From the IMG/VR virus record IMGVR_UViG_3300045115_000228: a stretch of DNA of 64,000 nucleotides, one strand, 5' to 3'. Within the stretch, counting starts at the first letter, position 1. The number at the start of each line of letters is the position of its first letter. This document shows, piece after piece, positions 26,865 to 64,000 of this stretch. Source of the stretch: an uncultured virus (IMG/VR IMGVR_UViG_3300045115_000228) (taxonomy: Duplodnaviria; Heunggongvirae; Uroviricota; Caudoviricetes). Below the pieces are notes generated by a model. The model made no database searches. It was not told the origin of the DNA and saw nothing but the letters and a program-made list of their open reading frames with translations. Made by a program: the position numbers and the translations under genes.

Positions 26865-28796
26865 TCATGCGGCCTGTGGCACCGTCGGCCCCTTGTCGGC
26901 TGCCGGGGAGGCGGGCGCGGGGGCGCCGGCAGGCGCGTCCACGGTGGCCACGGCTCCCGCAGCCTGTGGCGCCGTCTCCGAGGAGGTCGCCGGAGGAGCC
27001 TTCCTGCGCTCCTTCTTGCGGAAGGCGGCCACGGGCAGCGTCAACGTCACCTGGCCTTCCTCCATCGATACCGCCATGCTCTTGGACAGCTCGATCGGCT
27101 CCCTGCCGACCCTGAACGAGAACAGGCTCGGGTACTTGGAGAACATGTAGCCGGAGGCCTCGTCGATGACGCTCTGCTCGTTGTCGAAGTCGTCGGGGTC
27201 GAAGGACAGCACCACCTGGCGCATCTTCGCGGTCCCGACCTCGACGTCGTCGACCGACGCCTCGACGAACGACTCGGGCAGGTCGAGCTTGCCGCCTTCC
27301 TTCTCCTCCGGGAGGAGGACCTCCGGTTCGGCCACTGGCTCCGGCCTCTCGTCGATGGACGCCAGCTCCGACTCGCTCGGCTCCCTGACGTCGCGCGTCA
27401 TACGGTCGACGAGGACGCGATCCTCAATGTCGCGCCTGTTGACCCGGCGCTTCGGCCTCGACATCCTGTCGATGTCCGGGGTCATCCTGACGAAAGGGTC
27501 CGTCTCGTCCCACCCCGGGGTCTCGCGCTCGATGAAGCCGATGTTGAACGGCTCTTCGAACTGCGCCGTCCTGTGGGACGACGCCGTGCGTGTCATCTGC
27601 CCTGCGGCGGGCTCGCTGAACCTGCGCTGCCACCAGCCCCTCTTTCCGAAGTGCTTCTCAAGCGCCGCCTTGAGGCCCGCGTTGTTGCCGGCCTTCGCCT
27701 CCCTGATCCCCTCGTATATCGTGGGGAACCTCGACCTGGGGTCGTCGTACCTCCACAGTTCGTGCGGCCCGATGTCGTACTGCTTGAGCATGTTCATCGC
27801 CTCGGCGTTCAGGCCGTGCCCGTACTCGTTCGGGCCAGGGACCCTTGCGGCCGTCCTGATGCCGTCCTTGCCCTTGACGTCCGGCAGCAGCATCTTCTTG
27901 TCGGTCTCGGACGCCGGCTCGTACTTCTCGCCCTCGGCGACCTTCTTGGCCTTGAGGCGCTGCTCCTCCAACTTGTGGATGTCCCCCTTGGATGCGTCGG
28001 GGTTGCGGTGCTTGACGAGTCCGCCCTTGCTGTCGTCGAGGCGGGCCTCGACGAGCCTGTCGGCCTCCCCGGTGCGCGCCTTCTCAAGGAGCGCTTGGGT
28101 CGTCGCATGCTTGGCGTCCTTGCGCCCCTCTCCTTCGAGCTGGGCGTCGGTCAGTTCCTTCGGCTCCTTCTTGCCGCGCTCGCCGAGCTGCCCCTCCGTG
28201 ACCTGGTTCGCGGGATCCTTCTTGGCGGTCTTCAGGTACGCCTTGAGGTTGAACGATCCCTCGGCCGTGAGGTCGCCCGGGAAGTTGTTGTGCCCGCGGT
28301 ACGACCCCCTTTCGGAAGCAAGGCACTCGGGGCAGGGGTACTCGTGGCCGGGTGGCAGGCCGCAGTCGGCCTCCTCGCACGGCGTGACGGCTCCGCAGCG
28401 GCACCTCCCGTCGTGGCCCACCGGGACGCTGACGTCGCTCGGCTCCTCCTGGCCCATCATGGCCTGCGCCGTCCTGACGCCGTCGAGCCGCTTCTCCACG
28501 GGGGCGGTCGACCCTCCGTACTGGTTGCCGGCGAGCTGCTTCTCCGTCGTGGACGCCGGGGCCTTGCCCTTGGACGCGATCTGGGCCTCCGTCAGTTCCG
28601 CCGGGGCCTTGCCGGTGCGCGCCGCGTCGAGCTGCTTCTCGGAGACGGCGGTCGGCTCCTTGCCGCGCGACCCTTCGAGCTGGGCCTCCGGCAGCCTGTC
28701 CGGGCCGTCGCCCTTGTTGGCGAGCTGGCCCTCCGTCGTCACGTCGAGGCCGCGCGCCGCCCTCTTCGCCAGGAATTCCCTGAGGTTGAAGCTCAT
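26865..28796 (-). CDS. Repeat-containing virion/scaffold-like protein (643 aa)
   Basis: About 10 copies of xExQL at 16-17 aa spacing, two FNL motifs, two RTAQ motifs; SD AAGGAG. Confidence 0.8.
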   Translation of the reverse strand: MSFNLREFLAKRAARGLDVTTEGQLANKGDGPDRLPEAQLEGSRGKEPTAVSEKQLDAARTGKAPAELTEAQIASKGKAPASTTEKQLAGNQYGGSTAPVEKRLDGVRTAQAMMGQEEPSDVSVPVGHDGRCRCGAVTPCEEADCGLPPGHEYPCPECLASERGSYRGHNNFPGDLTAEGSFNLKAYLKTAKKDPANQVTEGQLGERGKKEPKELTDAQLEGEGRKDAKHATTQALLEKARTGEADRLVEARLDDSKGGLVKHRNPDASKGDIHKLEEQRLKAKKVAEGEKYEPASETDKKMLLPDVKGKDGIRTAARVPGPNEYGHGLNAEAMNMLKQYDIGPHELWRYDDPRSRFPTIYEGIREAKAGNNAGLKAALEKHFGKRGWWQRRFSEPAAGQMTRTASSHRTAQFEEPFNIGFIERETPGWDETDPFVRMTPDIDRMSRPKRRVNRRDIEDRVLVDRMTRDVREPSESELASIDERPEPVAEPEVLLPEEKEGGKLDLPESFVEASVDDVEVGTAKMRQVVLSFDPDDFDNEQSVIDEASGYMFSKYPSLFSFRVGREPIELSKSMAVSMEEGQVTLTLPVAAFRKKERRKAPPATSSETAPQAAGAVATVDAPAGAPAPASPAADKGPTVPQAA

Positions 28797-28839
28797 TTGC
28801 GTCTCCTTGCTGTCGGTCCCATGGGTTTGCCCCTCCTGA

Positions 28840-28865
28840 TTCGGCGGCCGCCGCCCGAAACCCTT
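28840..28865 (-). promoter_or_regulatory. Phage promoter AAGG-N18-CGAA
   Basis: AAGG GTTTCGGGCGGCGGCCGC CGAA TCAG. Confidence 0.7.
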
Positions 28866-28868
28866 GTC

Positions 28869-30617: not shown

Positions 30618-31462
30618 AGTTCCTCCAGCACGTAGATGTCGTCGCCGCGCATGGCCAAGTCGATGACGCGGCCCGACGAGGCGTAGGGCGTCGAGACGTC
30701 GAGCGACGAGGCCCCGAACGTCCTGACGAGGTTCCCGTCGGACAGCGCGACCCTGCCGCGGTCGGAACGGATGGACGAGGGGGACGACAGCCGGGCCGCC
30801 GGTCCGACGCCGTCCGCGGCGCCCCTGGATCCGGGCGCCCCGACGCCAGCCGCCTCCGACTGGCCGCGGAACGCCCTGACCATCGCGTTGCCGGCGTCCG
30901 ACACGAAGATCAGTCCCGTGCCCTCGTCGAAGCAGACCCCGCATGGGGAGTCGAGCATCGCCGCCTTCGGGCTGCTGGACGACAGGAAGCCCCTCTTCCC
31001 GGAGCCGATCACCCAGGCCAGGGCGCCTTCCGAGATCGCGGCGACGCAGTTCGACCCGGCGAGGGCCACGACGACGGACGACCTGGACGTGCGGCACATG
31101 CCGTACGGCGGAGGGGACGCGGAGCCGAGCAGCCTGGAGGCCGAGGCGAACGTGCCGGCCCCGCACATCCGGCTCCCCGCCCCGTAGGACTGGTCGAACG
31201 ACCAGAGCATCTCGCGGGACAACTGCAGGACGACGATGCCCCACCTGTCGCAGCACGCCCCGACCGGGGACGACACCTCAAGCCTGCGCGCGGCGATCCT
31301 GACAGCCCCGTCGTCCCCGGCGAACCCGAACGTGCCGTCGGGGCAGAAGAAGCCCACGGCCCTCTCCTTCGGCGAGCAGAAGACGCCGCACGCCTCGTCT
31401 GGCAGCCGCGCCGCCATCCTGGAGACGGGCTTCCCGGTGGGAATCCTCGCGATAGACTTCAT
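30614..31462 (-). CDS. NHL-repeat/beta-propeller-like protein
   Basis: LDSPCGVCFDEGTGLIFVSDAGNAMVR, G..GAADG.G.AARLSSPSSI. Confidence 0.65.
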   Translation of the reverse strand: MKSIARIPTGKPVSRMAARLPDEACGVFCSPKERAVGFFCPDGTFGFAGDDGAVRIAARRLEVSSPVGACCDRWGIVVLQLSREMLWSFDQSYGAGSRMCGAGTFASASRLLGSASPPPYGMCRTSRSSVVVALAGSNCVAAISEGALAWVIGSGKRGFLSSSSPKAAMLDSPCGVCFDEGTGLIFVSDAGNAMVRAFRGQSEAAGVGAPGSRGAADGVGPAARLSSPSSIRSDRGRVALSDGNLVRTFGASSLDVSTPYASSGRVIDLAMRGDDIYVLEEL

Positions 31463-31469
31463 CCTGACG

Positions 31470-32672: not shown

Positions 32673-32691
32673 TATGCCTCTGTGGGCATAA

Positions 32692-32717
32692 TTCGGCGTC
32701 GGGGGCGGCGATCCCTT
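32692..32717 (-). promoter_or_regulatory. Phage promoter AAGG-N18-CGAA
   Basis: AAGG GATCGCCGCCCCCGACGC CGAA TTAT. Confidence 0.7.
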
Positions 32718-32719
32718 GC

Positions 32720-34569: not shown

Positions 34570-34588
34570 GCGAGCCATTATACAGCGG

Positions 34589-34614: not shown

Positions 34615-34624
34615 TGATATGCCC

Positions 34625-36508: not shown

Positions 36509-36513
36509 GAATT

Positions 36514-41997: not shown

Positions 41998-43929
41998 TCA
42001 CCCGGTCTTCGTCCACTCTATGGAGAACGCCAGGATGTCGTCGTCCCCGCTGGGGATCTCGATGTTCTGGTACATCGATGTGTCGCGCAGTGCCCTCTCC
42101 GCCTCCGCCTCCGCCGCGGCGTCGGCGGCGGCCTGCTGCCTGGCCCGCTCCTCCTCCTCGCGGCGCAGCCTCTCCTCGCGCTCCCGCAGGATCCTCCTGT
42201 CGGCCTCGGTGCGATCCGCCTCACCCCTGGCGAGCGCGGCCTCCTCAAGCCTCTTGCGCTCGGCGGCCTGCGCCTGCTCGCGCCTGGCGCGCTGCTCCTC
42301 AAGCTGCCTCTCGCGCTCGGCCTCGACCCTGTCGTAGTAGGCCCTGTTCTGAGGCTTGTTGCGGCGCCCCTGCGCCTCCTCGTAGGCGCGCTGCGCGAAC
42401 TGGTTCGGCTCGAAGTCGCGCTCGTACGGCTCGATGGCGGCGTGGTAGGCGGCCTCCGCCCTGGAGTATGCCGCCTGGTCGAACACGCCTCCCTGGTTGA
42501 ACTCGTCGTCGTCCTCGCTCGGGCGCCGCGGGATGTCGTCGTTGTTGGCGACGATGTCGTCCTCCGCCTGGAACCACGCGTCGCTGGCCCACTCCTCGAA
42601 CGACTGGCGGCCCTCCTCGAAGAGGTGGAGCTCGCCCCTCTGCTCGGCGTAGTCGGCCCAGGCGTCTATCCCGCTGTTGGCGGTGCTGGAGTAGTAGTGC
42701 GACCCCTGGTTGGCCTGGTCGTACGTCCATTCCAGGGCGGCCTTGTAGCCGTCGGCGTCGTCGACGACGAACGTCCGCCTCGAAGTCCTCGTCGAGCGGC
42801 GCCCCGTGTTCGGATCCCTTTCCGTGGTCTCCTCGTGCCAGTCCACGGACAGGGACGGCACGAACCCGTTCGGGTCTTGGGCATGCTCCTCAAGGTCGCG
42901 GATGCTCTCCACCTCGTATGAGTCGCCGATCCACCAGAGCGGCTCGCCCCTCTGCCTGAGCTTGAGGGCGAGCTCCTTGACCTTCGGCATCCCTTGGGTC
43001 GTGCCGTCGCAGTCGTGGACCTCCGTGCCGCGCCCGTCGCTCCTGGCCTCCCCGATCTCGATGGCGGCCTGCGGGACCCCCTGGGGGTCGCGGATGGAGA
43101 TCAGCCGGTCGCTGTTCCTCATCCCCATCCCGGTGATCTCCTGGACGACCTCCCACTCGTAGTCGAAGTCGCGGCCGCCGGGCTGCCTGCCGATCTCCCT
43201 GGGGTCTGGCTTGGCCCTGGACTGCGGGTCGACCCACACGGCCCTCCACTTGCCCGACAGGGCGACGGAGCGCTCGCCCCTCGTGGACAGCCTCTTGGAC
43301 GCCTCCAGCTTCTTGGCGTAGTCCGCCCATTCCCTCGCCATGACCTTCGCCGTCCCGATGTCGTTCACCGTGGACAGCGGCGTCTTGGTCGCCCGCGACC
43401 ACCTGACCAGCTCGGCGAACTCGGACCTGTAGTGCGGGTGGTCGGAGGAGAACTGCTCCTGGTTGGGGGCCTTCGCCACGATCCACCGGAACTCGTCCTC
43501 GGACAGACCGCCCTGGATTTCCCTCTCGAAGTCCATCATGCCTTGCTTGACCCGGTTGGGCTTGTCGCGCAGCCACGAGATGGCCCAAGGCTTCTCGCCG
43601 AACACGGCGGCCAACGCCTTGCCGACGAAGTGGTTGTCGGACTCCGTGGCGGCGGCTTCGAGGGAATGGCGCAGCAGGCTCTTCCCCGTCTCCCTGGCCC
43701 ACGCCAGGATCTTGTCGAACCGCGCCGCTACCCTGTCCCACCGGACGGCCGATATGTCGTGGCCGGTCGTGAATCCGAAGTCATCGTCCGTCCACTCCAG
43801 GATCCACTCGGCCTCCCCGTGGGACATCCCGTGCTTGGAGTCCAGCGCCGAGACCATCCCCCTGACCTGCTCCGGGATCGGCTTCCCCTTGAACGAGTCG
43901 GGCACCTTGCCTTGCGCGACGATCCTCAT
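41998..43929 (-). CDS. Hypothetical protein (643 aa), N-terminal MRIVAQ, possible PcfJ-like segment, coiled coil and acidic tail
   Basis: ISIRDPQGVPQAAIEI; ends DDDILAFSIEWTKTG. Confidence 0.8.
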   Translation of the reverse strand: MRIVAQGKVPDSFKGKPIPEQVRGMVSALDSKHGMSHGEAEWILEWTDDDFGFTTGHDISAVRWDRVAARFDKILAWARETGKSLLRHSLEAAATESDNHFVGKALAAVFGEKPWAISWLRDKPNRVKQGMMDFEREIQGGLSEDEFRWIVAKAPNQEQFSSDHPHYRSEFAELVRWSRATKTPLSTVNDIGTAKVMAREWADYAKKLEASKRLSTRGERSVALSGKWRAVWVDPQSRAKPDPREIGRQPGGRDFDYEWEVVQEITGMGMRNSDRLISIRDPQGVPQAAIEIGEARSDGRGTEVHDCDGTTQGMPKVKELALKLRQRGEPLWWIGDSYEVESIRDLEEHAQDPNGFVPSLSVDWHEETTERDPNTGRRSTRTSRRTFVVDDADGYKAALEWTYDQANQGSHYYSSTANSGIDAWADYAEQRGELHLFEEGRQSFEEWASDAWFQAEDDIVANNDDIPRRPSEDDDEFNQGGVFDQAAYSRAEAAYHAAIEPYERDFEPNQFAQRAYEEAQGRRNKPQNRAYYDRVEAERERQLEEQRARREQAQAAERKRLEEAALARGEADRTEADRRILREREERLRREEEERARQQAAADAAAEAEAERALRDTSMYQNIEIPSGDDDILAFSIEWTKTG

Positions 43930-44003: not shown

Positions 44004-45119
44004 ATGGGACGCATTCGGCACAGGATGGCGCAGTCCTCGGGGCTGCGCCCGGTCGGCTCCGAGGCCATCGAGGGCGTCAGGTTCACGCTGACGAACGCGG
44101 CGGCCGGCACGGGGACGCTCAGGGTCAAGTTCAGGAAGGGCCAGCGGAGCAAGCCATCGGCCCTCAGCGACACGTACGACTACTACGGCGTCCCTGAGGA
44201 CGCGTACATGGAGCTCGTCCAGACCAAGACCCCGATGACCTACATCAACAGGGAGATCAAGCCGAGGTTCTCCTACAAGCGGTTCACGGAGGAGGAGCTC
44301 GCCGCCGAGGCCGCCCCCGCCCCGCCGCGCGCCACCGCGACGGAACCCCAGATCGACGAGGGGGCGTTCAACGCCATCCTGCAGCACGACGACGACATAC
44401 TGGCGTCGTCGGAGGGTCGCGTCAGGGTCGCGCAGGCCCTCGGCCCCCTGCACGGAGACTCGCCGTCCGAGGCCATGCTCAAGGCCGTCAAGAGCGGGAC
44501 ACCGTTCCGCTTCCACGGGCTCACGTTCTCGATGAGGGAGGGGGCGTCGAACACCGGAAGCAACGTGTGGGTGCCTTCCATCGTCAGGCGCTATCCCGGG
44601 GAGGACGCCCCCGACGCGCACGTGAGCAACACCTATTCCACGGAGGGCAGGGCCACCCGCATGCTGTCCGACAAACTGCTGGCGTACTGCAGGATGCAGA
44701 ACTTCGGTGGAGCCCCCGAGGCCCTCAACCAGATCGGCGACCACAACATCGTCAGGATCGGCCGGCACGACTACTTCCTCCAGCAGCAGGTGATGCTGGA
44801 CCTCGGCGACAGGGCATGGATGGTCGCTAGGGTGCCGGCGCGGGGGGAGCGCGACCTCAACATGCAGGAGCAGGTCGGGCTTGGCAGGGAGCAAAGGCTG
44901 GCGGGGATCGCCTTCACGGACAGGCCGCAGGCGGAGGCCTACCTGTGCTCCATGCAGATGCTCGACGACTTCGCGTATGCCGGCAAGAAGATCGAGCGGG
45001 AGAGGGCGAAGGAAGAGGAGGCCAGGATGGAGGGCGGCCTCAAGGAGTACCTCGCCGACCCTGGGCACGACTTCGACATATCCTTCTCAGGCGCCGGCGA
45101 CGACTCGCCCTTCGCCTAG
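44004..45119 (+). CDS. KTSC-domain protein, N-terminal RMAQ
   Basis: GTLRVKFR...YDYYGVPEDAYMELV......YINREIK.RFSY. Confidence 0.75.
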   Translation: MGRIRHRMAQSSGLRPVGSEAIEGVRFTLTNAAAGTGTLRVKFRKGQRSKPSALSDTYDYYGVPEDAYMELVQTKTPMTYINREIKPRFSYKRFTEEELAAEAAPAPPRATATEPQIDEGAFNAILQHDDDILASSEGRVRVAQALGPLHGDSPSEAMLKAVKSGTPFRFHGLTFSMREGASNTGSNVWVPSIVRRYPGEDAPDAHVSNTYSTEGRATRMLSDKLLAYCRMQNFGGAPEALNQIGDHNIVRIGRHDYFLQQQVMLDLGDRAWMVARVPARGERDLNMQEQVGLGREQRLAGIAFTDRPQAEAYLCSMQMLDDFAYAGKKIERERAKEEEARMEGGLKEYLADPGHDFDISFSGAGDDSPFA

Positions 45120-47076: not shown

Positions 47077-48705
47077 ATGGCTTTGACATATACACTAGAC
47101 GGGGATAACAAGGCTACGATCACCGGAGCCAGCCCTCCTGCTACTGGAGCGTTGACCATCCCCGCTACGATTGACGGTTACGACGTTATCGCTGTCGGGG
47201 ATAGTGCTTTTGCATCTAACACGGACATCACCAGCCTGACGCTCGGCAGCAACCTTGTAACCATTGGTGGTAGTGCTTTCTATAATTGTACTAGCTTCAC
47301 AGGTAATCTAACCATCCCCAATTCTGTAACAAGTATTGGTGGTTATGCTTTCTATTGTTGTTCTGGCTTCACAGGTAATCTAACCGTAGGTACTTCTGTA
47401 ACAAGCATTGGTGATAATGCTTTCGATGGTTGTTCTAGCTTCACAGGTAATCTAACCATCGGTAATTCTGTAACAAGTATTGGTGGTTTTGCTTTCCAAT
47501 ATTGTACTGGCTTCACTGGAAACCTAACCATACCTAACTCTGTAACAAGTATTGGTGATTTTGCTTTCTTTAGTTGTGCTGGCTTCACAGGTAATCTAAC
47601 CATACCTAATTCTGTAACAAGTATTGGTATGGGTGCTTTTGTGGGTTGTTCTGGCTTCACAGGTAATCTAACCATACCTAATTCTGTAACAAGTATTGGT
47701 AATTGGATTTTCTCTTATTGTACTGGCTTCACCGGTAATCTAACCATACCTAACTCTGTAACAAGTATTGGTGATAGTGCTTTCTCTTATTGTTCTGGCT
47801 TCACTGGCAACCTAACCATACCTAATTCTGTAACGAGTATTGGTGATTATGCTTTCCAAAGTTGTTCTGGCTTCACTGGTAATCTAACCATCGGTAATTC
47901 TGTAACAAGTATTGGTGATTATGCTTTCGAGGCGTGCAGGGGCTTCAATGGCAACCTGACCATAGGTAATTCTGTAACAAGTATTGGTGATTTTGCTTTC
48001 TTTAGTTGTTCTGGCCTCTCAGGTAATCTAACCATACCTAATTCTGTAACAAGTATTGGTGATAATGCTTTTGTGGGTTGTTCTGGCTTCGATGGAAACC
48101 TAACCATACCTAATTCTGTAACAAGTATTGATGTGGCTGCTTTCTATTATTGTACTGGTTTCACTGGAAACCTAACCATAGGTAATTCTGTAACAAGTAT
48201 TGGTGATTATGCTTTCGGTAGTTGTTCTGGCTTAACAGGAAACCTAACCATACCTAATTCTGTAACAAGTATTGGTATGGGTGCTTTCCAAGATTGTTCT
48301 GGCTTCACCGGTAATCTAACCATACCTAATGCTGTAACAAGTATTGGTGATGGTGCTTTCGGTAGTTGTTATGGCTTAACAGGAAACCTAACCATAGGTA
48401 ATTCTGTAACAAGTATCGATGGTTATGCTTTCTATGGTTGTAATGGCTTCACAGGAGTCTGGTTCGGTGGAAATGCTCCTACTTTCGGTACAAATGTTTT
48501 TGCTTCCGTAACAGCCGTAGGGTACTATCTCGTCGGCAAGACGGGATGGGGTGGTGGTACGCCTCTCGGTACATCCGTTGAGGTGCCTTACTACGACATC
48601 GATCCGTCCGACGTCGCGAACGGGGAGGCGTACGGCTTTGGGGAGACGAGCGTGGGGACCCGCAAGAGCGGGATCAATGGCTCCGGCATATTGGGCATGA
48701 TCTGA
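47077..48705 (+). CDS. BspA/TpLRR-type leucine-rich repeat protein, candidate adhesin or receptor-binding protein
   Basis: LTIPNSVTSIGxxAFxxC repeats; cap WFGGNAP; SD AGGAGG. Confidence 0.92.
   Translation: MALTYTLDGDNKATITGASPPATGALTIPATIDGYDVIAVGDSAFASNTDITSLTLGSNLVTIGGSAFYNCTSFTGNLTIPNSVTSIGGYAFYCCSGFTGNLTVGTSVTSIGDNAFDGCSSFTGNLTIGNSVTSIGGFAFQYCTGFTGNLTIPNSVTSIGDFAFFSCAGFTGNLTIPNSVTSIGMGAFVGCSGFTGNLTIPNSVTSIGNWIFSYCTGFTGNLTIPNSVTSIGDSAFSYCSGFTGNLTIPNSVTSIGDYAFQSCSGFTGNLTIGNSVTSIGDYAFEACRGFNGNLTIGNSVTSIGDFAFFSCSGLSGNLTIPNSVTSIGDNAFVGCSGFDGNLTIPNSVTSIDVAAFYYCTGFTGNLTIGNSVTSIGDYAFGSCSGLTGNLTIPNSVTSIGMGAFQDCSGFTGNLTIPNAVTSIGDGAFGSCYGLTGNLTIGNSVTSIDGYAFYGCNGFTGVWFGGNAPTFGTNVFASVTAVGYYLVGKTGWGGGTPLGTSVEVPYYDIDPSDVANGEAYGFGETSVGTRKSGINGSGILGMI
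47302..48453 (+). repeat. 16 tandem 72-bp coding repeats (24 aa), AT-rich
   Basis: Consensus GGTAATCTAACCATACCTAATTCTGTAACAAGTATTGGTnnnnnnGCTTTCnnnnnnTGTnCTGGCTTCACn; a representative unit is 26/72 GC. Confidence 0.95.
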
Positions 48706-50049: not shown

Positions 50050-50349
50050 ATGAGGATCACCAGGATCACAAGGTCGGCCCAGGCCACGGAGATCGGCCAG
50101 AAGGAGAAGCAGGCGATCAACGCCGCCATCATGTTCCTGAAGGGCAAGATCCCGGAGATCGTCCCCATGCTCACGAACCCCGGCACGCGGACGTTCCTCA
50201 CGAGGTTCCTCGACGTCGTGGCCTCCGATCCCAGCGTGCTGGGCGGGTTCAAGAACGCGATGCAGGCCATCAACGCGGCGATGATGAGCGACGCGTCGGG
50301 CACGACGACCGCCATCGGCACGGCGGGGACGTCCGGCGCAAGGACATAG
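50050..50349 (+). CDS. Hypothetical protein, N-terminal MRITRITRSAQ
   Basis: SD GGAGG, good codon bias. Confidence 0.75.
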   Translation: MRITRITRSAQATEIGQKEKQAINAAIMFLKGKIPEIVPMLTNPGTRTFLTRFLDVVASDPSVLGGFKNAMQAINAAMMSDASGTTTAIGTAGTSGART

Positions 50350-50371: not shown

Positions 50372-53038
50372 ATGATCCGCACCGTAGAGGCTCAGGAAGA
50401 AACTTCGAAGGAGGGGCTCAGGCGCGACATGGCGTCGCGGCTTGAGAGGACCTCGCGCTTCTACATCGGCCCCATCTACTTCCGCGTCGCCGTCCCCATG
50501 GCCGGCGGCAAGTGGCAGGCGTACAGGTGCGACACCTCGAACGACGCCGTCCTGACGGCGTCCCTGGGGTACGCGACCAGGAACAACGCCATCCGCTGGG
50601 CCGCCGACAGCGTGCCCGCCGGATTCTACGACGGGAGCGACGTCGACGAGGAGCTGTCCGCGCAGTTCGGCCAGCACTACCGCGTGACGGTGAACGGCTG
50701 GGACTTCGTCCCGACCCAGTCCGACGAGACCGGCACCTTCCTCATATCAACCCACCCATCGACGGCCGAGGCGATGGAGGCCCACAGGATCGGGCGCCTC
50801 CCATCCCTGTCGACGAGGGTGTTCCCCAGGGACGCATCGATCCTGCGCAGGTGGGCCTTCAGCCGGTTCTCCGACCTCGCGACCTTCGTCACCAGCAAGG
50901 CCTTCAGGGCGATCGCATCGACGCCCGCGACGCAGGACGTCGACATGGCCTGGGAGGGCAACGAGGGGGCGTTCGTGCCGACCATCGTCGGCATCGTCAG
51001 GGAACTGGCGGACAGGCTGAGGATGCCCGCCGGGAAGGTCTTCACGGGGAGGACGCTCGACAGCGAGATCCCCAACCCGAACGCCACCCGGCGGCCGGCG
51101 TTCGACCTGGACCCGCACCAGCACCTCATCGACGGCAACCGGCACGACGACGTCTACCTGTCGTTCCGCGAGGGGCTTCCGCCCAGCGAGGAGCAGGAGG
51201 ACTCGTTCTTCGAGGCCCTCGACGCCATCGTCCGCAGGCACTTCCCGGACAGGACGGTCGACGTCATCGACGACCCGGACGGCACGCCCGGATGGATCAC
51301 GTTCGCCGTCAGGAGGACCGACACCCTGCCCGGCAGGCCACAGCCCGCAAGGCAGAGGCGTCCCGTCGCCCAGCCGGAGCATGGCGACGCCGTCGACGCG
51401 CCGAGGGCGGACATGCCGAGGGCGGACATGTCGTATGTCGACAGCGACTCCGAGAGGGCGTTCAGCGGGCTGATGGGCGAGGACGAGCCCATCTTCGCGA
51501 TCCGGGTCGTCGGGCTCGGCAAGAAGGCGCAGGCGGAGGACTGGACGAACACCTACAGGGATGCGACCGGCATCCTGGCGGGCGGGACGGGCAGGGCGGA
51601 GTACTGCATCGAGCGCAACCGGTACGGCGTCAGGCGGAACCCAGACACGAACCTGTGGACGGCCTACACCGCCGAGAGCGGCAGACCTGGCGCCATCAGG
51701 AGCGGGGAGATGGAGCTCGCGGCGGCCATCGACATGGCGGCGGGGGCGGCGCACGGCTACGCGAAGTCCCACGGCTACCACGCCGTCCCGGACGGCACCA
51801 CCCTCACCCTCATGAACGAGATACGGCGCGACGGCCACCTGCGCACCGACGGCTACGAGGTGTCGGCGCGGGGACCCGTCGGGTCGGAGCAGAGCGGCTA
51901 CGGCACGTACGTCCTGGAGCGCGTCCCCATCTCGCACGGCCCGGCGCGCGGCGCCCTCTCGATGTCGGTCGGCGACATCGACATGATGGCGAACATGCGG
52001 TTCTCAAGGGAGCGCGACGCGGAGTTCTTCCTGGCGTCGAGCTTCGAGATGTCGGAGTGGAGCCGGGGACGGAGTCCGCCCTCCCTGGGCGAGATGCAGG
52101 TTTCCGCCGCGGCGGACGCGTTGAGGGGCGCCGGCCTGCCCGGCAATTCCGTGTTCGTGTCGCGCGCCGGCTGGATGGCGATGAGCCAAGGCGAGCGCTC
52201 AAGGGCCTGCGGCGGCGAGCAGGACAGGAAGGCCTTCCTCGACAACCTCCAGTCCTCGTCCCCGTCCGTGGTCGCGGTCCTGTTCGACAGGGCATCGATC
52301 CGCGACCTGCCGCAGGGCCTGGACCAGGTCGTCGAGGACGTCAGGAGACGGATGGGGTACGGCGCGCAGGTCATCCCCGACCTGGCCCTGATGCTCGTGG
52401 ACGCCTCGACGGGATCCGGCGCCCGGCCGGAGAGCCTCCCGGGATGGCACCACCGGCCTCCGCCGCCCATCACGCCGGAGGAGCAGCAGGAGAAGCCGGC
52501 GAGGATACCTGGCGACAGCGAGCTCTACGGCGACGTGGACCTGCCGCAGGACGGCGAGGACTTCTTCGGGATCACGTTCGCGTCGGCCGGCGCGGGGCGC
52601 GCGGGGCGGCCCCGCCGCAAGCCGACGGTCGTGTCCTTCGACTGGGACGACACGGTGATGATCGCCGACAGGCGCGACGGGGTCGTGGACTACGACGAGC
52701 ACGGCGACCCCAAGGGCGGGACCCTCAACGAGGACGCGGCGGAGCTGATGAGGCTGCACGCCGGGATGGGGGACAAGATCGTGATCGTCACGTGCCGCTA
52801 CCCTGACGGGCTCGCGACGGTGTGGGACGCCGTCCGGGAGCACGGGCTCCCCGTCAGCGAGGCCTACGCCACGTCGCACGCGAGCAAGGCCCCGACCCTG
52901 CGCAGCGTCGGCGCCACGATCCACTACGACGACAGCGACTTCAGGTCGGACGAGATACGGCGCGAGCTGGGCGCGGCCGTGAGCGTGCGCCACGCGGACA
53001 GGATCGCGGACTACGTGGCCTCCTGGGGGAAGACATGA
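50372..53038 (+). CDS. Multidomain protein: duplicated unknown module plus C-terminal HAD-like phosphatase
   Basis: HAD motifs VSFDWDDT, IVTCR, K, HYDD; internal KKAQ boundary. Confidence 0.8.
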   Translation: MIRTVEAQEETSKEGLRRDMASRLERTSRFYIGPIYFRVAVPMAGGKWQAYRCDTSNDAVLTASLGYATRNNAIRWAADSVPAGFYDGSDVDEELSAQFGQHYRVTVNGWDFVPTQSDETGTFLISTHPSTAEAMEAHRIGRLPSLSTRVFPRDASILRRWAFSRFSDLATFVTSKAFRAIASTPATQDVDMAWEGNEGAFVPTIVGIVRELADRLRMPAGKVFTGRTLDSEIPNPNATRRPAFDLDPHQHLIDGNRHDDVYLSFREGLPPSEEQEDSFFEALDAIVRRHFPDRTVDVIDDPDGTPGWITFAVRRTDTLPGRPQPARQRRPVAQPEHGDAVDAPRADMPRADMSYVDSDSERAFSGLMGEDEPIFAIRVVGLGKKAQAEDWTNTYRDATGILAGGTGRAEYCIERNRYGVRRNPDTNLWTAYTAESGRPGAIRSGEMELAAAIDMAAGAAHGYAKSHGYHAVPDGTTLTLMNEIRRDGHLRTDGYEVSARGPVGSEQSGYGTYVLERVPISHGPARGALSMSVGDIDMMANMRFSRERDAEFFLASSFEMSEWSRGRSPPSLGEMQVSAAADALRGAGLPGNSVFVSRAGWMAMSQGERSRACGGEQDRKAFLDNLQSSSPSVVAVLFDRASIRDLPQGLDQVVEDVRRRMGYGAQVIPDLALMLVDASTGSGARPESLPGWHHRPPPPITPEEQQEKPARIPGDSELYGDVDLPQDGEDFFGITFASAGAGRAGRPRRKPTVVSFDWDDTVMIADRRDGVVDYDEHGDPKGGTLNEDAAELMRLHAGMGDKIVIVTCRYPDGLATVWDAVREHGLPVSEAYATSHASKAPTLRSVGATIHYDDSDFRSDEIRRELGAAVSVRHADRIADYVASWGKT

Positions 53039-54193: not shown

Positions 54194-54526
54194 ATGAGGA
54201 TCGTGCGCATAGCCCAGCCCGTCAGGACGTACCCGAGGTACGTCGCCGAGAGGCGCGAGGGACGCCTGAAGGGACAGTACCCCGACGAGGCGTTCAGGCA
54301 CGTGCCATCGCTGCGGAGACAGTGGGACAGGGGCGGCTTCGGCACGGGGAGCAGGCTCGTGGAGGTGGAGTCGGACTCCCCGCGAGGCCTCATCGACGAG
54401 CTGAGGCGCAGGGGGCACAGCCCCGCGCACGACGGGTTCGAGTTCTACGAGATACGCGGCCCGGGAGCGCCGCGAGCCAGGATCCCCATCCAGAGGCTGT
54501 TCGCCATGGCCAGCGGCCAGGCGTAG
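54194..54526 (+). CDS. Hypothetical protein, N-terminal MRIVRIAQ
   Basis: Leaderless geometry, good codon bias. Confidence 0.7.
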   Translation: MRIVRIAQPVRTYPRYVAERREGRLKGQYPDEAFRHVPSLRRQWDRGGFGTGSRLVEVESDSPRGLIDELRRRGHSPAHDGFEFYEIRGPGAPRARIPIQRLFAMASGQA

Positions 54527-57595: not shown

Positions 57596-57634
57596 CCGTC
57601 TTGGTTCTTGCCGCTCTGGATCGCCCCATCCCCG

Positions 57635-57985
57635 CTATTCGTAGATCACCGTCACGTTCGTCGTCGTGCTCGTGACGATCGTCAGGCCTATGTGGAACGG
57701 GCAGTCGAAGTCAAGGAACGACGGGATCGGCTTGCTCTGGGTTCCCGGGGAGGGGATGGTCACCGTGGCGATGATCGTCCCCGTGGCCGCCGTGTTGTCG
57801 TAGATCGTGACGACCCCCGCCGTGTTGGGGTCGTTGAGCATTATGCGGTGCAGCCTGCCGGAGCCATACTTGAGCACGTTCGTCGCCGCCGCCGGCGGCC
57901 TCGGCACGAACGACAGGGTGTGGCTGCTTTCGAACCCCCTCGGCAGCAACGCCGTGAGCGTCCAGATCCCCGTGCTGACCAACAC
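57635..57985 (-). CDS. Small beta-rich structural-protein-like ORF, possibly a 5'-truncated remnant
   Basis: GRLHRIMLN...VTIYDNTAATGTIIATV...LDFDCPFHIGLTIVT; no convincing start or SD. Confidence 0.5.
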   Translation of the reverse strand: MLVSTGIWTLTALLPRGFESSHTLSFVPRPPAAATNVLKYGSGRLHRIMLNDPNTAGVVTIYDNTAATGTIIATVTIPSPGTQSKPIPSFLDFDCPFHIGLTIVTSTTTNVTVIYE

Positions 57986-58014
57986 CTACGGCGTCAAGGT
58001 GTATCGCTGACCGC

Positions 58015-58040
58015 AAGGGTTGGCGGCCCCGTCCGACGAA
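58015..58040 (+). promoter_or_regulatory. Phage promoter AAGG-N18-CGAA
   Basis: AAGG GTTGGCGGCCCCGTCCGA CGAA CAAT. Confidence 0.7.
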
Positions 58041-58102
58041 CAATGGAGCCGTGCGGGCAATCCACGGATCCCGCCAAAAGTCTCCACCGGACGGGAAGTC
58101 AC

Positions 58103-61100
58103 ATGGCTGGAACAAGGCTCGAAATATCCGACGCCGCCGTCGCCGGCTACCTTGAGGCGCACGGCATGCGGGAGGCGCCAGAGTCCCTGCGCAAGGCGGC
58201 CGAGGCCGCCGTCCGCAGGATAGCCTCGTCGGGGGCGGCCGGATGGGACGCGCCCGTCGAAGGCGGCGTGGTGGTCTCCTGCTCCCCGGCATGGCTGCGC
58301 AAGGACTCCAAGAGGAAGCTGGGCTGGGCCTACGTCAGGCTGCCCGAGGCCGTGCGCGACGCGATGAAGCGCGTGCGCGACAAGATAGACTTCGACGACC
58401 TCGGGGAGGACGGCAAGGAGGGGCACCCCCACGTCACGGCGAAGTACGGGCTCACCATCGACAACCCGTCCGACGTCAAGGACGCGACGAGGGGGAACAG
58501 GGGCGGGCGCGTCAGGATGGGCAAGACGTCCATCTTCGAGAAGGAGGACGGCGACGTCCTGAAGGTCTCCGTGACCGGGCACGCCCTGCATTCCCTCTGG
58601 AAGTCCCTGTCCGAGCTTCCCAACGAGGACGAGTTCGACGAGTACCGCCCGCACGCCACGCTCGCGTACCTGAAGAAGGGGGCCGGCAGGAAGTACCGCG
58701 CGCTCGACGACCTCGACGGCATGGAGTTCACGTTCGACTCCTTCGTGTTCGAGGACGCCCACGACGTCAAGACCGAGATCGCGCTCGACGGCAAGGGGGC
58801 CGAGGCGTCGGGGCCGAGGATCGTCAGGACGGCGCAGTTCGACGAAGAGGACGGGGCGTTCGAGATAGGGACCCACGAGATTGAGCCACATCCCCGCGCG
58901 GCGGAACGCTTCCGCGTCGAGACCTTCGACAGGCTCGACGACACGTGGGTCAGGATCGATGGCGCCGTCGGGTCGGACGCCGAGGCGGCCAGCAAGGAGT
59001 TCGACACCGTCGAGGAAGCCGAGGCCGCGATGCGGGCCCTCGCCGACGGCGTCGGGCTGCCGGTCCAGTTGTTCCGCGTGGTCGGCACGACGACCGGTCC
59101 GCTGTCTCCCGGCGACCCGGAGAGGTTCTCCGTCCAGACGCTTTCCGGGACGGGATGGGTCAACAGCAACATCTCCGCCCCGACATTCATCTACTTCTCT
59201 TCGGAGGAGGAGGCCCGCGGCGCGATACGCGCCTTCGTGGACGGAGGGATGGGCAGGGCACAGGGCAAGTCGATGAGCGACTTCCGCGTCGTCAGCGACC
59301 GGAGGGGGCCGCTGGACAACCCGCCCGGCCAGGCGACCCCGCAGGAAGCGACGGAGGGATTCAGGGTCGAATACGAGACCAACCAAGGCTGGATGGATTA
59401 CCGCGAGCTGGGCACCCACAGGAGCGAGCTAGGAGCCAGGATCGCCTTGGCAAGGGACAGGTCCGGACAGGACAGCGGAGACTTCCGCATCGTCAGCACC
59501 ACGAGGGGTCCGCTCCCAGACGACGTCCCGCAGGACGCCGTGGCGAGGTTCGCCGCCACGGACGGCGGGCGCACGGCCATGACGTCGGCGGAGACCGACT
59601 ATCTCAACGGGACGGCGCTCGCGACCGTCGTGACGCGGTTCTCGTCCGCAATGCACGAGTGGTTCCTGTCCCTTGAGGACGACCGCGCGCGCGGCGAGGA
59701 ACTGTGGGAGGGACTCGTCGATGACATCCCGCGGCCGGTCATGGACCACCTCAACGCCGTGAGGCCGCCCCGGGGGAGCAATCCCGCCGTATTCTTCCGC
59801 GTGCAGGAGCCGACGCGCGGCGCCATACCGGCCGGCACGCCCGAGGGCGAGCTGTGGCAGGACGTCGATGGCCTTCCGCCCTACCCTACCGTCGACCAGG
59901 CCATCGAGAACGCCGCCCGCTACTTCGACGACGGGGAGACCTACCGCATCGTCGACCAGCGCGGGGAGGTCGTGCTGAACGACGCGGCGCGGCGCGAGTT
60001 CTTCGTCCCGGAGGTACTGGGCGACGACGGATGGAGGCCCATCGTCCAAGGGGCGCACTTCTCCGACTCCTCGACGGCATGGATAGCCGCCGGATCGTAC
60101 GCCAGCGAGAGGGGACTGCCGAGGAGACACGTGAGGGTCGTGAACCGGGACGGCCAGCGGCAGCCATACCCGGCGGAATGGGGAGTCCAGGCCGACCCCT
60201 TGGACATCCCAGTTCGCCCGACGGCGGAGAACGTGGAATGGATGGAGCGAGGGCGGAGGTACGCCTGGGCGTACGTCGAGCGCGGCACGATAGCCGACCC
60301 GTCCTTCACGCACGGCGTGTTCCTCGGGGCCGACTCCAGCGCGCGCGCGAGGCTGCTGCACTTCGAGAACGAGCACGGCGAGTCGAGGTGGATCCCGGCG
60401 TCCCACATCAGGCGGATATGGGCCGACAGGACGAGGTTCAGGGTCCAGGTGCTGAACGGCGGAGGCGACTGGGAAGACCATGCCGTGCAGCCGTGGTTCG
60501 AGCGGAGGTATCCGACGGCGGGGGCGGCGCAAAGGGCGATCTCGCGCTATGTCGAGGCCTACCGCAACAGCCACCGGGCCGATCCGGGCGTCACGATGCG
60601 CGTCATCGACGAGGAGGGGCACGAGTCGCCATCCCCGTTCGGAAGGTTCGTGGTCGAGGTGTTCCAGGGCCTGGGGGCGGGATGGGCGACCGTGCCGTGG
60701 CTGACCGGCAGAGGCGGCGAGCTGGGGTTCTCGACGCGCCAGGCAGGCGAGCAGGCCCTGTCCGACCGCCTGGCGGCCAACCCCGAGACGTCGGACGAGC
60801 CAGGGAACTACCGCGTCGTGGACAGGAGCCTGATCCGGAGGACGGCGTCCGCGGGAGGGGTGGGGAAGAGGGCCCAGTTCGACGACGACGGATCCTTCGA
60901 GATCGCCTTCCACGAGCTCGGCCCCGATCGGAAGCCTGGCCAAAGGACGTGGGTCTTCGCCGTCGGCCCCAACGGGCGCAACGTCTACTTCAACGACAAG
61001 GACGAGTGGGACAGGACACGCAACCCGCCCGAGAAGTCCGGCAACGACGACGAACTCATCGACAGGGTCAAGTGGCTGACGGGGACGGCCGACGACGGGG

Positions 61101-64000
61101 CGATGGGCGTGTTCGAGCTCGACCCCGGCCAGATCGAGAAGGTCAGGGCCGACCCCTCGTTCGTCGAGGACGGCGACTTCAAGGCGTGGTGCATGAACGC
61201 GTTCCCCCACTTCAGGAACGTGGAGGAGTTGACCCTGCTCAGGAAGAGCGGCGACGCGTGGGACTCCATCGGCAGGTTCAGCACGATGGACTCCCTGTGC
61301 AGGATCGTGGAAGACCAGGTGGCGCGCGGAGGGGACTTCTTCGACTACGGCGCCAGCAGCTCCGTGACCGGCGGCGTCCAGTTGTTCATGATCCAGAAGC
61401 AGGTCAACGGGAGATGGGGCCACCCGAGGGCTGGCCGCAGGGTCGTCTTCGACGACTACGACGCCGCGACCGCCGCCCTGGGCAGCCCGGGGGAGTTCCC
61501 TTCCGACAGCGGGGACTACAGGATCGTCGGCAACTGCTCCGACAACCCCGACAACCTCCGCGGGCGCTTCGTCGTCCAGCGCAGGACGAGCCGTGGCTGG
61601 CATGCGCCGTACTGGGACGGGGCCGTGTCGTTCGACGACCCCAGGATCGCATGGCGCGACGTCCAGTCCTACCTGTTCGACCACCCCTCCGCCAGCCCAG
61701 GCGACTTCAGGATGATCGACGCCCAAGGGGGCACGGCGTCGCCGGCCGTCCTGCCGATCCCGCCGCCGGACAGGTACAACCTGATGAGGCAGGACGAGGA
61801 CGGCGAATGGATGACATTCGGCCACTACGGGGCGGCCGACGACGCCCGCAGGCGTCTGGCCGAGCTGCGCGCCGGCGACCCGACCAACCGGTACAGGGTC
61901 GAGCCGGTCTTCCCGGAGCCAAGACCCGAACCGAGGACAGAGCGCCAATCTTGGGCGGTCGCGAGGTTTGTCGACGACGGGCCTCGGTGGCAGATCGTGT
62001 CGGTGTTCGGCACCAGCGAGGCCGCCAACCGCGAGGTCGCAAGGCTGCGGCTGGCGGAACCCGAGACCAGATTCGGGGTGATCCACAACGTCGTCGAGGC
62101 TTCGGCGTCTGGCATGGCGAGGACGGCCCAGTTCGACGACGATGAGGAGGAGTTCCAGATCTCCATGCACGAGCTGGAGCCGCCTCCTCCAAGGCCGCCG
62201 ATCCAGAAGACCCCGGTCAGGCAGGTCTTCATGATCGAGGAGAGGGCAAGCGACACCGGCGAATGGTCGCCCATCAGCCTGTCAGGGGAAACCGCTCCGA
62301 AGTGGTTCTCGTCCGTCGAGGACGCCGACGCGTTCCTGAGCGGGTACATCAACAGGCTGCTCGACGAGGACGGGGCCGACCTCGACGCCGCCGACAGGAA
62401 CAACTACAGGATCGTCGAAGCCTACGTGGACGAGGAGACTGGCAGGCCCGTCGATATGGCTCCCCAGAGGGAGCCGATCGGCGAGGCGACGCAGGCCGGC
62501 GGCGCCCAAGGCGGCGCCCGGCACATGTACATGATCCAGCACGAGTTCGACTACGGATGGGACTACTTCGGGGACAAGAGCGACGACGGGAGGGAGGAGC
62601 CATCCGAGTTCCACGCCACCGAGGAAGCCGCCAGGGAAGACCTCGAAGAATTCCTTCAGGAGTCCGCCGCCAACGACATGGAATACTCCCGCGACGAGTT
62701 CAGGATCGTCCCGTGCCGCTTCGCCATCGAGGCCCAGGAGGACAGGCCGGGCAGGCCGGCGGAATGGGGCGACGGGGGATGGGAGGACGAGAACGGCGTC
62801 AGGATGACGTTCCCGACGCCCATGGAGGCCCGCGCCGAGATCGCGAACTTCACGGCCGGCAGCCAGAGGAACCGCAACCCCGCCGCGTTCAGGGTCGTCC
62901 CGATCCCGCTCGAACGCATCCCGGGGTTCGCACAAGCAAGGCAGGACATCCGTCCCCCGCTGCTCTTCGCCTCCGTGACCGTCGACGAGCCGATGGCGGC
63001 GAGCATCCCCCAGTTGAGGGGCCGGGAGGGGGCATACGTCGTGTTCGTCGTCAGGCGCCCGTACTGGGACGAGCACCACGCCCTTGAGCCGAACGAGGAC
63101 GAAGAGTGCGTCGACGCCGTCATGGACGGGGCCATCGACGCCTTCCCGTTCGACGAGCCCAACGTGTTCGTCACGAGGCTGAACGACGTGCAACGCCTCC
63201 GCGACGACCCCAGGTTCGAGGAGAGCCAGGAGCTCGACACGTTCGTCGAGGCGTACGACCTGCGCTTCGCCGACGACCGAAGCCGGCTGCGCCAGGACAG
63301 GAACGGGCGCTGCTTCATCGACGACACCCCCATCGTCGTCAACGACAGGTACGCTTGGACGGTCCACCCGAGGTTCGCCGGAGAGGCGAACAGGATCGGG
63401 GTGGCCGGCGGGGGCATCATCGGATCGGGGATCCTGCGGGAGATCGACGTCGAGAGACAGGCCCTCACCTTCAACATATCCGACAACGCCATCGTCGACC
63501 GCCGACTGAACGCATGGTGGATACAGGGCATCCGCCTGCTCAGGTCCCCCACGCGCGGCCTTGGCAGGGTGCGCAGGGCGCAGTTCGAGGACGACGGATC
63601 CTTCGAGATCGCGGTCCACGAGATGGATCCGACCCCGCCGCCGCGGCGGGAACAGCCGGCCAAGGCGGATTCGCAGGCCACGCCAGGGACCGATCCCGAC
63701 GCCCCATACCGCATCGAGCGGCTGGGAGAGGCGGGCGGTCAGGCCGTCGTCGAGACGGTGTTCGAGGAGACCCCGCTCGGCCCCGGGGGAAGGACGAACA
63801 GCTTCGACCACCTCGCCGACGCCAAGGCAGCCCTGTGGTCCGTCCTCTCGTGCCCCAACCAAGACCCGTCCGGCTACCGCATCGTCAACGGCCGCGGGGA
63901 GGCGCTGCCAGACGCGGAATGGTGGGCCGAGGTCGCAGGCAGGATGGGGTACGTCGTGCAGTACCGCAAGCCCACGGGGGAGTGGGACAGGATCGATCCG
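58103..64000 (+). CDS. Giant modular protein (>1960 aa, runs off right edge; absent from ORF track): N-terminal 2H phosphoesterase plus repeated modules
   Basis: Manual translation of frame +2 from ATG 58103; HPHVTAKYG and RPHATLAY; four in-frame [RK]xAQF[DE]...FxIxxHE boundaries. Confidence 0.88.
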   Translation, partial: MAGTRLEISDAAVAGYLEAHGMREAPESLRKAAEAAVRRIASSGAAGWDAPVEGGVVVSCSPAWLRKDSKRKLGWAYVRLPEAVRDAMKRVRDKIDFDDLGEDGKEGHPHVTAKYGLTIDNPSDVKDATRGNRGGRVRMGKTSIFEKEDGDVLKVSVTGHALHSLWKSLSELPNEDEFDEYRPHATLAYLKKGAGRKYRALDDLDGMEFTFDSFVFEDAHDVKTEIALDGKGAEASGPRIVRTAQFDEEDGAFEIGTHEIEPHPRAAERFRVETFDRLDDTWVRIDGAVGSDAEAASKEFDTVEEAEAAMRALADGVGLPVQLFRVVGTTTGPLSPGDPERFSVQTLSGTGWVNSNISAPTFIYFSSEEEARGAIRAFVDGGMGRAQGKSMSDFRVVSDRRGPLDNPPGQATPQEATEGFRVEYETNQGWMDYRELGTHRSELGARIALARDRSGQDSGDFRIVSTTRGPLPDDVPQDAVARFAATDGGRTAMTSAETDYLNGTALATVVTRFSSAMHEWFLSLEDDRARGEELWEGLVDDIPRPVMDHLNAVRPPRGSNPAVFFRVQEPTRGAIPAGTPEGELWQDVDGLPPYPTVDQAIENAARYFDDGETYRIVDQRGEVVLNDAARREFFVPEVLGDDGWRPIVQGAHFSDSSTAWIAAGSYASERGLPRRHVRVVNRDGQRQPYPAEWGVQADPLDIPVRPTAENVEWMERGRRYAWAYVERGTIADPSFTHGVFLGADSSARARLLHFENEHGESRWIPASHIRRIWADRTRFRVQVLNGGGDWEDHAVQPWFERRYPTAGAAQRAISRYVEAYRNSHRADPGVTMRVIDEEGHESPSPFGRFVVEVFQGLGAGWATVPWLTGRGGELGFSTRQAGEQALSDRLAANPETSDEPGNYRVVDRSLIRRTASAGGVGKRAQFDDDGSFEIAFHELGPDRKPGQRTWVFAVGPNGRNVYFNDKDEWDRTRNPPEKSGNDDELIDRVKWLTGTADDGAMGVFELDPGQIEKVRADPSFVEDGDFKAWCMNAFPHFRNVEELTLLRKSGDAWDSIGRFSTMDSLCRIVEDQVARGGDFFDYGASSSVTGGVQLFMIQKQVNGRWGHPRAGRRVVFDDYDAATAALGSPGEFPSDSGDYRIVGNCSDNPDNLRGRFVVQRRTSRGWHAPYWDGAVSFDDPRIAWRDVQSYLFDHPSASPGDFRMIDAQGGTASPAVLPIPPPDRYNLMRQDEDGEWMTFGHYGAADDARRRLAELRAGDPTNRYRVEPVFPEPRPEPRTERQSWAVARFVDDGPRWQIVSVFGTSEAANREVARLRLAEPETRFGVIHNVVEASASGMARTAQFDDDEEEFQISMHELEPPPPRPPIQKTPVRQVFMIEERASDTGEWSPISLSGETAPKWFSSVEDADAFLSGYINRLLDEDGADLDAADRNNYRIVEAYVDEETGRPVDMAPQREPIGEATQAGGAQGGARHMYMIQHEFDYGWDYFGDKSDDGREEPSEFHATEEAAREDLEEFLQESAANDMEYSRDEFRIVPCRFAIEAQEDRPGRPAEWGDGGWEDENGVRMTFPTPMEARAEIANFTAGSQRNRNPAAFRVVPIPLERIPGFAQARQDIRPPLLFASVTVDEPMAASIPQLRGREGAYVVFVVRRPYWDEHHALEPNEDEECVDAVMDGAIDAFPFDEPNVFVTRLNDVQRLRDDPRFEESQELDTFVEAYDLRFADDRSRLRQDRNGRCFIDDTPIVVNDRYAWTVHPRFAGEANRIGVAGGGIIGSGILREIDVERQALTFNISDNAIVDRRLNAWWIQGIRLLRSPTRGLGRVRRAQFEDDGSFEIAVHEMDPTPPPRREQPAKADSQATPGTDPDAPYRIERLGEAGGQAVVETVFEETPLGPGGRTNSFDHLADAKAALWSVLSCPNQDPSGYRIVNGRGEALPDAEWWAEVAGRMGYVVQYRKPTGEWDRIDP

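Follow-up and report, generated by a model that had tools for sequence, protein, structure and literature searches.

Targeting peptides and head-protease codes are signals of kinds that are already known. [quoted passage not shown] According to the same sections, the giant phages SPN3US (gp245), phiKZ and 201phi2-1 trim many of their head and ejection proteins at a short motif that recurs, the propeptides being 20 to 254 residues long and a protein being cut several times. [quoted passage not shown] Here we describe a short motif, an acidic run followed by F-x-[IV]-x-hydrophobic and hereafter called the tag, in a 64,000-nucleotide stretch of an uncultured member of the Caudoviricetes (IMG/VR record IMGVR_UViG_3300045115_000228; the whole stretch is referred to as the window). 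The tag occurs in proteins that bear [RK]-x-A-Q sites and, in one polyprotein-like giant protein, directly after six of them. Judged by its enrichment and conservation, it is a real, selected short linear motif, and we tentatively propose that it docks processed fragments on a putative receptor of the assembling head.

Like the CTS, the tag is short, shared by unrelated proteins and found beside a predicted head-protease site. The CTS, however, is N-terminal and cut off, whereas the tag follows the site, stands at C-termini or lies in linkers, and would therefore stay on the mature protein. The closer CTS analogue in this phage is the leader of MRIV..AQ type, which precedes the site; the tag does not fit CTS placement. 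The [RK]-x-A-Q pattern matches the head-protease motif of T4 and the giant phages in that it recurs, namely at leaders, between modules and within the chain of the protease itself, but P1 is Gln here and Glu in T4-type sites, and cleavage in this phage is predicted. The motif of SPN3US, phiKZ and 201phi2-1 also ends in Glu and removes N-terminal propeptides, and neither a retained second tag nor a seven-module polyprotein is described for their processing in the sections of PMC10052503 drawn on here. With the encapsulin CLP the tag shares the character of a short conserved peptide, carried by a flexible linker at the terminus of unrelated proteins, although its internal copies would be terminal only if the A-Q bond is cut; moreover, the small (287 aa) HK97-type capsid protein of the clade resembles the HK97-fold encapsulin shell. 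The CLP consensus is rich in Gly, Ser and Leu. The tag, an acidic run with F-x-I, is unlike it in sequence and here, in a virus that packages DNA, goes together with proteolytic joints and a polyprotein.

The tag and the sites that accompany it

The motif was first noticed in a sequence-only reading, which described it as acidic F-x-I-x-(F/W), quoted five peptides and counted four further copies after A-Q in a giant open reading frame (ORF). All five peptides were located where they had been reported, and all four copies were found directly after [RK]-x-A-Q (Table 1; a slash marks the predicted bond). The core of the proposed rule is real, but its wording proved too narrow: the fifth position may be F, W, V, M or T, the third is V in one copy, and FAIRV, itself among the quoted peptides, already departs from F/W. 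The tag is better described as two to six Asp or Glu residues followed by an amphipathic, strand-like core, F-x-[IV]-x-(F/W/V/M/T), within flexible linkers. Its assignment to termini and module boundaries was borne out: copies lie in linkers rich in Pro, Gly, Asp and Glu, two are C-terminal, and one precedes the HAD motif FDWDDT by 20 aa. No window copy forms the free C-terminus; each is internal or followed by 4-10 residues, P0003 ending in FSIEWTKTG and P0004 in FDISFSGAGDDSPFA. The notion that it is separate from the cleavage site holds for the three copies that stand alone, but not for the others, since seven of 11 begin at P1' and one ends eight residues before a site. If the A-Q sites are cut, as we infer, nearly every predicted fragment would retain one tag, at a new N-terminus, at a C-terminus or in a linker.

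The [RK]-x-A-Q pattern itself occurs in five N-terminal leaders and between modules, as well as in the prohead-protease extension. A link between tag and A-Q proteins is seen throughout the window, where no acidic F.I.[FWVMT] copy falls outside the proteins with [RK]-x-A-Q sites or leaders, and the large terminase (TerL), the portal, the AAA ATPase, thymidylate synthase and other window proteins contain none. By hand tally, three window proteins have both leader and tag, three a leader only, two a tag only and 30 neither (Fisher p = 0.02). Leaders ending in A-Q are kept in orthologues; besides those of P0003, P0004 and P0005 (Table 1), they comprise MRIVRIAQ (54194-54217, +), MRITRITRSAQ (50050-50082, +) and MEHVTENSRTAQ (5710-5745, -).

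The giant ORF runs off the window. An exact look-up gave the full-length protein, P0008, as 3657 aa with two more tag copies beyond the window end, hence six in total, and a tag follows [RK]-x-A-Q at six of six sites. These cassettes of site plus tag, with the pattern (A-S)-x2-4-[RK]-x-A-Q / [FI]-[DE]3-x1-3-F-[EQD]-[IV]-x-x-H-E-x-x-P, divide P0008 into seven modules. Self-BLAST of the 3657-aa protein gave no off-diagonal match at E <= 0.01, so the modules share only the cassette, in agreement with the earlier statement that the motif is common to otherwise unrelated proteins. The cassette copies differ at synonymous DNA positions. Given these differences and the dissimilarity of the modules, the cassette is an island in unrelated sequence. 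A search for orthologues of the giant ORF found only copies of at least 90% identity, and the conservation results given below concern P0002 to P0005. The first module is a 2H phosphoesterase (LigT/Acb1-like); its match to Acb1 (anti-CBASS) is weak. The giant protein (58103-64000 and beyond, +) also contains many small units with the ending [FY]-R-[IV]-V.

Chance expectation was estimated from 36 ORF translations (19,950 aa) and 500 whole-protein shuffles. F.I.[FW] was observed six times against 1.47 expected, and five times behind an acidic stretch against 0.39, a count reached in none of the 500 shuffles. Within 25 aa of the C-terminus, the acidic form occurred twice against 0.02 expected, again in 0/500 shuffles. 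The motif was defined post hoc, after it had been seen, and whole-protein shuffles preserve neither strand periodicity nor local acidity; for these reasons we give more weight to conservation.

Loss of the motif in orthologues, which the sequence-only reading had named as evidence against its own proposal, is not what we found: the tag is kept in the P0003, P0004 and P0005 families, with P0002 a borderline case. In the P0004 family, with two orthologues (60% and 45% identity), F-D-[IV]-x-F is invariant in three of three proteins and the charged linker before it varies; the leader R-x-A-Q/S and the internal V-[RK]-x-A-Q are likewise invariant. The sole P0005 orthologue (46% identity) retains both tags, as FAIxxVGLxKxAQ and FGIxFxSA, in two of two proteins. 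P0003 had 24 matches, of which the 11 full-length ones (33-52% identity) were aligned, the rest being fragments or distant; all 11 have a leader of MRI[VF]..[AS]Q type, and their tails carry an acidic run with F-x-I-x-x in eight and an acidic run with [IL]-[FLV]-A-S in the other three. Neither P0003 nor P0004 had a homologue in five distant relatives, and a metagenome scan returned short contigs only. At the P0002 site, compared in 13 orthologues from low-GC relatives, x-A-Q is kept in 10 and an acidic-aromatic patch (DIDW, DINW, LNF, LDF or DEDF) lies within about 10 residues after the site in all 13; DF[DP]IV[VI] stands at six of the 12 complete C-termini. An AlphaFold model of P0004, built from a three-row alignment, has a mean pLDDT of 47, too low to judge whether the tail folds back.

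Table 1. Positions of tags, cassettes and the proteins and proteases discussed
Feature	Position	Strand	Remarks
Prohead protease	1..3885	-	Prohead-protease domain (T4 gp21/phiKZ type, phrog_18299) with scaffold-like extension; TEKQLD-type repeats, KTAQ/F site
HtrA/DegP-like serine protease	25147..26193	-	Without PDZ domain; His-Asp-Ser invariant in 6/6 orthologues
P0002	26865..28796	-	643 aa, directly downstream of TerL; conserved N-part with TEKQLD-type repeats, then [RK]-x-A-Q site, acidic C-part
P0002 cassette	27522..27572	-	RTAQ/FEEPFNIGFIERE
Quoted peptide	27534-27560	-	FEEPFNIGF
P0003	41998..43929	-	643 aa, no known family; leader MRIVAQ (43912-43929), charged coiled linker, then tag
P0003 C-terminal tag	42001..42048	-	GDDDILAFSIEWTKTG, then stop
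Quoted peptide	42013-42045	-	DDDILAFSIEW
P0004	44004..45119	+	371 aa, KTSC domain; leader MGRIRHRMAQ (44004-44033), internal RVRVAQ (44418-44435)
P0004 C-terminal tag	45063..45116	+	GHDFDISFSGAGDDSPFA, then stop
Quoted peptide	45066-45086	+	HDFDISF
P0005	50372..53038	+	888 aa; leader MIRTVEAQ (50372-50395), C-terminal HAD-like domain
P0005 tag upstream of site	51476..51532	+	GEDEPIFAIRVVGLGKKAQ/
Quoted peptide	51476-51508	+	GEDEPIFAIRV
P0005 stand-alone internal tag	52550..52591	+	DGEDFFGITFASAG, in linker before HAD domain
Quoted peptide	52550-52579	+	DGEDFFGITF
Giant polyprotein-like ORF (P0008)	58103..64000	+	Start about 58103 (ORF 57608-64000+); runs off window
Cassette 1	58826..58888	+	RTAQ/FDEEDGAFEIGTHEIEP
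Cassette 2	60866..60925	+	KRAQ/FDDDGSFEIAFHELGP
Cassette 3	62120..62182	+	RTAQ/FDDDEEEFQISMHELEP
Cassette 4	63572..63631	+	RRAQ/FEDDGSFEIAVHEMDP

Related phages and candidate cutting enzymes

ORFs were called on four relatives, of which G001, G012 and G010 were fetched whole and G007 to base 460,000 of 460,978. In G001 (476 kb), nine C-termini carry a strict acidic F-x-I against 2.7 expected; in shuffles that preserve tail composition, nine was reached in 1/1000 and 0/300 trials, and pseudo-termini gave one to four. The corresponding counts are three against 3.3 expected in G007 (461 kb), one against 1.3 in G012 (371 kb, 73% complete) and none against 0.8 in G010 (255 kb), this last figure being doubtful with 244 ORFs called. 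The tag is thus lineage-limited, not clade-wide, and in G001 it is not tied to leaders. The tag-bearing set of nine in G001 comprises a Cas3-like helicase, a SLOG protein, a DUF6939 protein, the orthologue of the window gene at 10281-12131 and uncharacterized proteins. Leaders in the relatives take the form MK[IV][IV]K... in 19 proteins of G001 and MNWYKxAQ in 11 of G007. The ORF count of G010 (loci L170-L182) refers to ORFs of at least 60 aa under the standard code in 255 kb, and may be due to recoding of a stop codon or to host DNA within the record.

As the enzyme for the [RK]-x-A-Q sites we favour the prohead protease as candidate, which is 50-58% identical among relatives; the HtrA-like protease is a second candidate, as enzyme or as receptor. 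This preference is due to G007, which has the prohead protease and 11 leaders of NWYKxAQ type but no HtrA-like gene, so that an HtrA enzyme appears dispensable for A-Q leaders. The HtrA-like gene is also absent from G012 and from three incomplete relatives. In its product a small N-terminal unit is connected to the catalytic domain through a conserved R-[VI]-A-Q joint, which reads RLAA in the window copy; no PDZ domain was found in this protein by Pfam or in the predicted structure, in which a disordered stretch (residues 1-100) is followed by a small strand-strand-helix-strand unit (residues 100-138). This unit, which precedes the catalytic domain, resembles the [FY]-R-[IV]-V units of the giant protein. 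HtrA module and tag occur together in two genomes (the window phage and G001) and are both missing from two (G007 and G012), with the module alone in G010, a concordance of four in five among few genomes.

Proposed docking on the head and the alternatives to it

We favour the reading that the retained tag docks processed fragments on a common, putative receptor of the assembling head, a proposal to which we give somewhat less than an even chance. In its favour are the enrichment and conservation of the tag, its coupling to the A-Q sites, the head genes that lie in one block (prohead protease fused to a scaffold-like region, portal and TerL), the precedents in T4 and the encapsulins, and the excess of tagged C-termini in G001. 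On this docking reading the tag would belong to the phage's protein-processing system, in which proteins with [RK]-x-A-Q, as MRIV..AQ leaders or as module joints, also bear it. The head protease would cut the chain, and the pieces would be loaded and remain held afterwards by the tag, which may add a strand to its partner or fit into a hydrophobic pocket that has a basic rim. The receptor could be a protein of the shell, the scaffold core or the head module. The tag would thereby act like an encapsulin CLP or a T4 CTS, but would be retained.

Several observations weigh against this proposal. The status of the proteins as cargo is based solely on the [RK]-x-A-Q pattern, and a polyprotein loaded as one chain would need one signal, so that for six copies retention after cutting has to be assumed in addition. 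None of the 13 P0002 orthologues has the strict motif at the site. Just one of the nine tagged G001 proteins has the MK[IV][IV]K leader, and the presence of the tag on leaderless enzymes such as the Cas3-like helicase means that the link to cargo is not general. The G001 excess is lost with looser motifs (F-x-[IV], 9 against 5.8; [FWY]-x-[ILV], 21 against 17; neither significant). G007, G012 and G010 have the same capsid-protein family yet no excess of tags, and the G007 capsid is 74% identical to that of G001, which argues against the shell as a universal receptor. A complex prediction that paired the G001 capsid (73-row alignment) with a 34-aa tail from one of the tagged G001 proteins, run without controls, gave a score of 0.00 and a mark of 0.32 and speaks neither for nor against docking; the relative's capsid was used because the capsid gene of the window phage lies outside the window.

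The tag could instead be an exosite, a substrate-recruitment motif for the prohead or HtrA-like protease that presents near or distant [RK]-x-A-Q bonds and has no role after cutting. We regard this as unlikely. In its favour, no more than 13 residues separate eight of the 11 copies from a site, the coupling in the giant ORF is complete, and weaker acidic-aromatic P' sides follow other sites (KKAQ/AEDW, KKAQ/DMFADD and KTAQ/EAWQECFDEF). HtrA proteases are steered by short hydrophobic peptides, and the one encoded here retains its catalytic triad, has an R-[VI]-A-Q joint of its own and accompanies the tag in both tag-bearing phages. Yet the three copies in the P0003, P0004 and P0005 families that lie 60-600 residues from any site are equally well conserved, the distance from site to tag ranges from two to 10 residues among P0002 orthologues, and many sites have no tag at all (SRTAQ/SLSG, TRTAQ/AIPG and VRVAQ/ALGP). 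For the HtrA-like protease in particular, the tag is not the usual PDZ-type ligand, as the enzyme lacks a PDZ domain and the tag is not at a free hydrophobic C-terminus; G010 has the module but no tagged C-termini (its gene calls being doubtful), and NWYKxAQ leaders abound in G007, where the gene is lacking. A quite improbable alternative, in our estimate, is an intracellular tail for binding a hub, be it a handle for an AAA+ ATPase in unfolding, turnover or assembly, or a means of docking on a replication and repair hub. Acidic-aromatic tails common to unrelated proteins are a known route to one hub, and in the C-terminus of E. coli SSB and in T7 gp2.5 and gp4 an acidic run with an aromatic residue brings different proteins to one partner. 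DDDILAF of P0003 resembles such tails; in G001, leaderless nucleic-acid and nucleotide enzymes, among them the Cas3-like HD helicase and the SLOG protein, carry the tag at the very C-terminus, with Phe at -6 to -13, and the same gene block has a conserved large AAA ATPase. Tails of the SSB and T7 type, however, require the aromatic residue as free C-terminus, a position it does not take in the window tags. Between the window phage and G001 the AAA ATPase aligns in its ATPase core alone, at 26% identity, its N-domains not being conserved; the tagged window proteins are not replisome parts, and the tight coupling to polyprotein A-Q joints would be left unexplained.

It may also be asked whether the copies have a common function at all. 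The giant-ORF cassette might have spread by internal duplication, with the other copies being ordinary strands or chance look-alikes in acidic tails. The post hoc definition is consistent with this, as are the frequency in proteins of alternating hydrophobic strands, which whole-protein shuffles ignore, the failure of looser definitions in G001, the absence of the strict motif from the P0002 orthologues and a P0004 model too poor to exclude a fold-back of the tail. We nevertheless consider it very unlikely. The P0004 and P0005 orthologues have an invariant tag, and eight of 11 P0003-family tails keep it, despite variable flanks; the modules around the six cassettes have no detectable similarity, and the C-terminal placement exceeds its expectation by far, as do the G001 termini against shuffles that preserve tail composition. 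The probability left over from these four readings we assign to other partners.

Should docking on the head apply, the tag might even be the phage counterpart of the encapsulin CLP, a portable and retained address by which enzymes are loaded, freed, held and delivered with the DNA, although we think this stronger version rather doubtful. The deliverable enzymes would then include the Acb1/LigT-like phosphoesterase, the HAD phosphatase and, in the relative, the Cas3-like helicase; it would become possible to read the injected proteome from sequence and to reuse the tag for packaging foreign proteins. To our knowledge, selection of capsid content in huge phages is known only for T4-like leaders. 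Among open-access papers and preprints, we found no description of a retained acidic F-x-I tag with a Gln-type joint, let alone six times in one polyprotein. Huge phages bear many proteins of unknown role, and a conserved, retained tag beside a Gln-type site would give a rule for predicting from sequence which of them are processed and possibly injected, applicable to an uncultured clade whose genomes reach about 550 kb. It would also offer a handle for finding the receptor and, possibly, a tool for loading proteins into capsids. If the partner is instead the protease or the ATPase, the tag would still be a new recognition code for that enzyme.

The phage and its gene context

The window has a G+C content of 67% and encodes an intein-bearing portal, TerL, a T4/phiKZ-type prohead-protease domain with a long extension, the HtrA/DegP-like serine protease, a large AAA ATPase and many proteins without known family. 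There is no close cultured phage: the best terminase match, at 25% identity, is an uncultured 485-kb phage, and no DNA match was found. In IMG/VR, its relatives by terminase are contigs of low G+C content, up to 476 kb long, that show the same gene order. Prohead protease, portal and TerL share one gene block, in which the protease is fused to the scaffold-like region, and the large AAA ATPase is kept in the same block across relatives. The capsid gene of the clade sits downstream of the protease gene, which places the window phage's own copy just outside the window. The 287-aa capsid protein (loci L067-L146) shows 66-100% identity among 80 loci, the contigs reaching 548 kb, whereas other shared proteins are only 25-60% identical, indicating an unusually strong constraint on the shell.

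A candidate capsid protein within the window, gp1188 (20682-24248, -; 1188 aa), was rejected, being a fusion of an HExxH domain with a nucleotidyltransferase of the CCA-adding/poly(A)-polymerase type. Its HExxH (zincin-like) region is invariant, and its orthologues have leaders of the MKIIKVSQ or MNWYKKAQ type. The DUF1257 and DUF2997 labels given in the sequence-only reading were not confirmed, Pfam giving no such match at E <= 0.01 and a search of the literature on them yielding nothing of use. Repeats of the form [LI]-[PT]-E-[KAD]-Q-L-[DE] ('TEKQLD') occur in the prohead-protease extension (1-3885, -), in the N-part of P0002 (26865-28796, -) and in relatives, and may be a second linear motif, one of the scaffold. 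The portal gene (5804-10219, -) is interrupted by intein and LAGLIDADG sequences and has a DUF559/HNH-like endonuclease region at its C-terminus; the portal measures 1471 aa in the window against 740 aa in G001. A leucine-rich-repeat protein of BspA type (47077-48705, +; LRR_5, E 6e-102) lies in the stretch of lowest G+C content in the window (61%).

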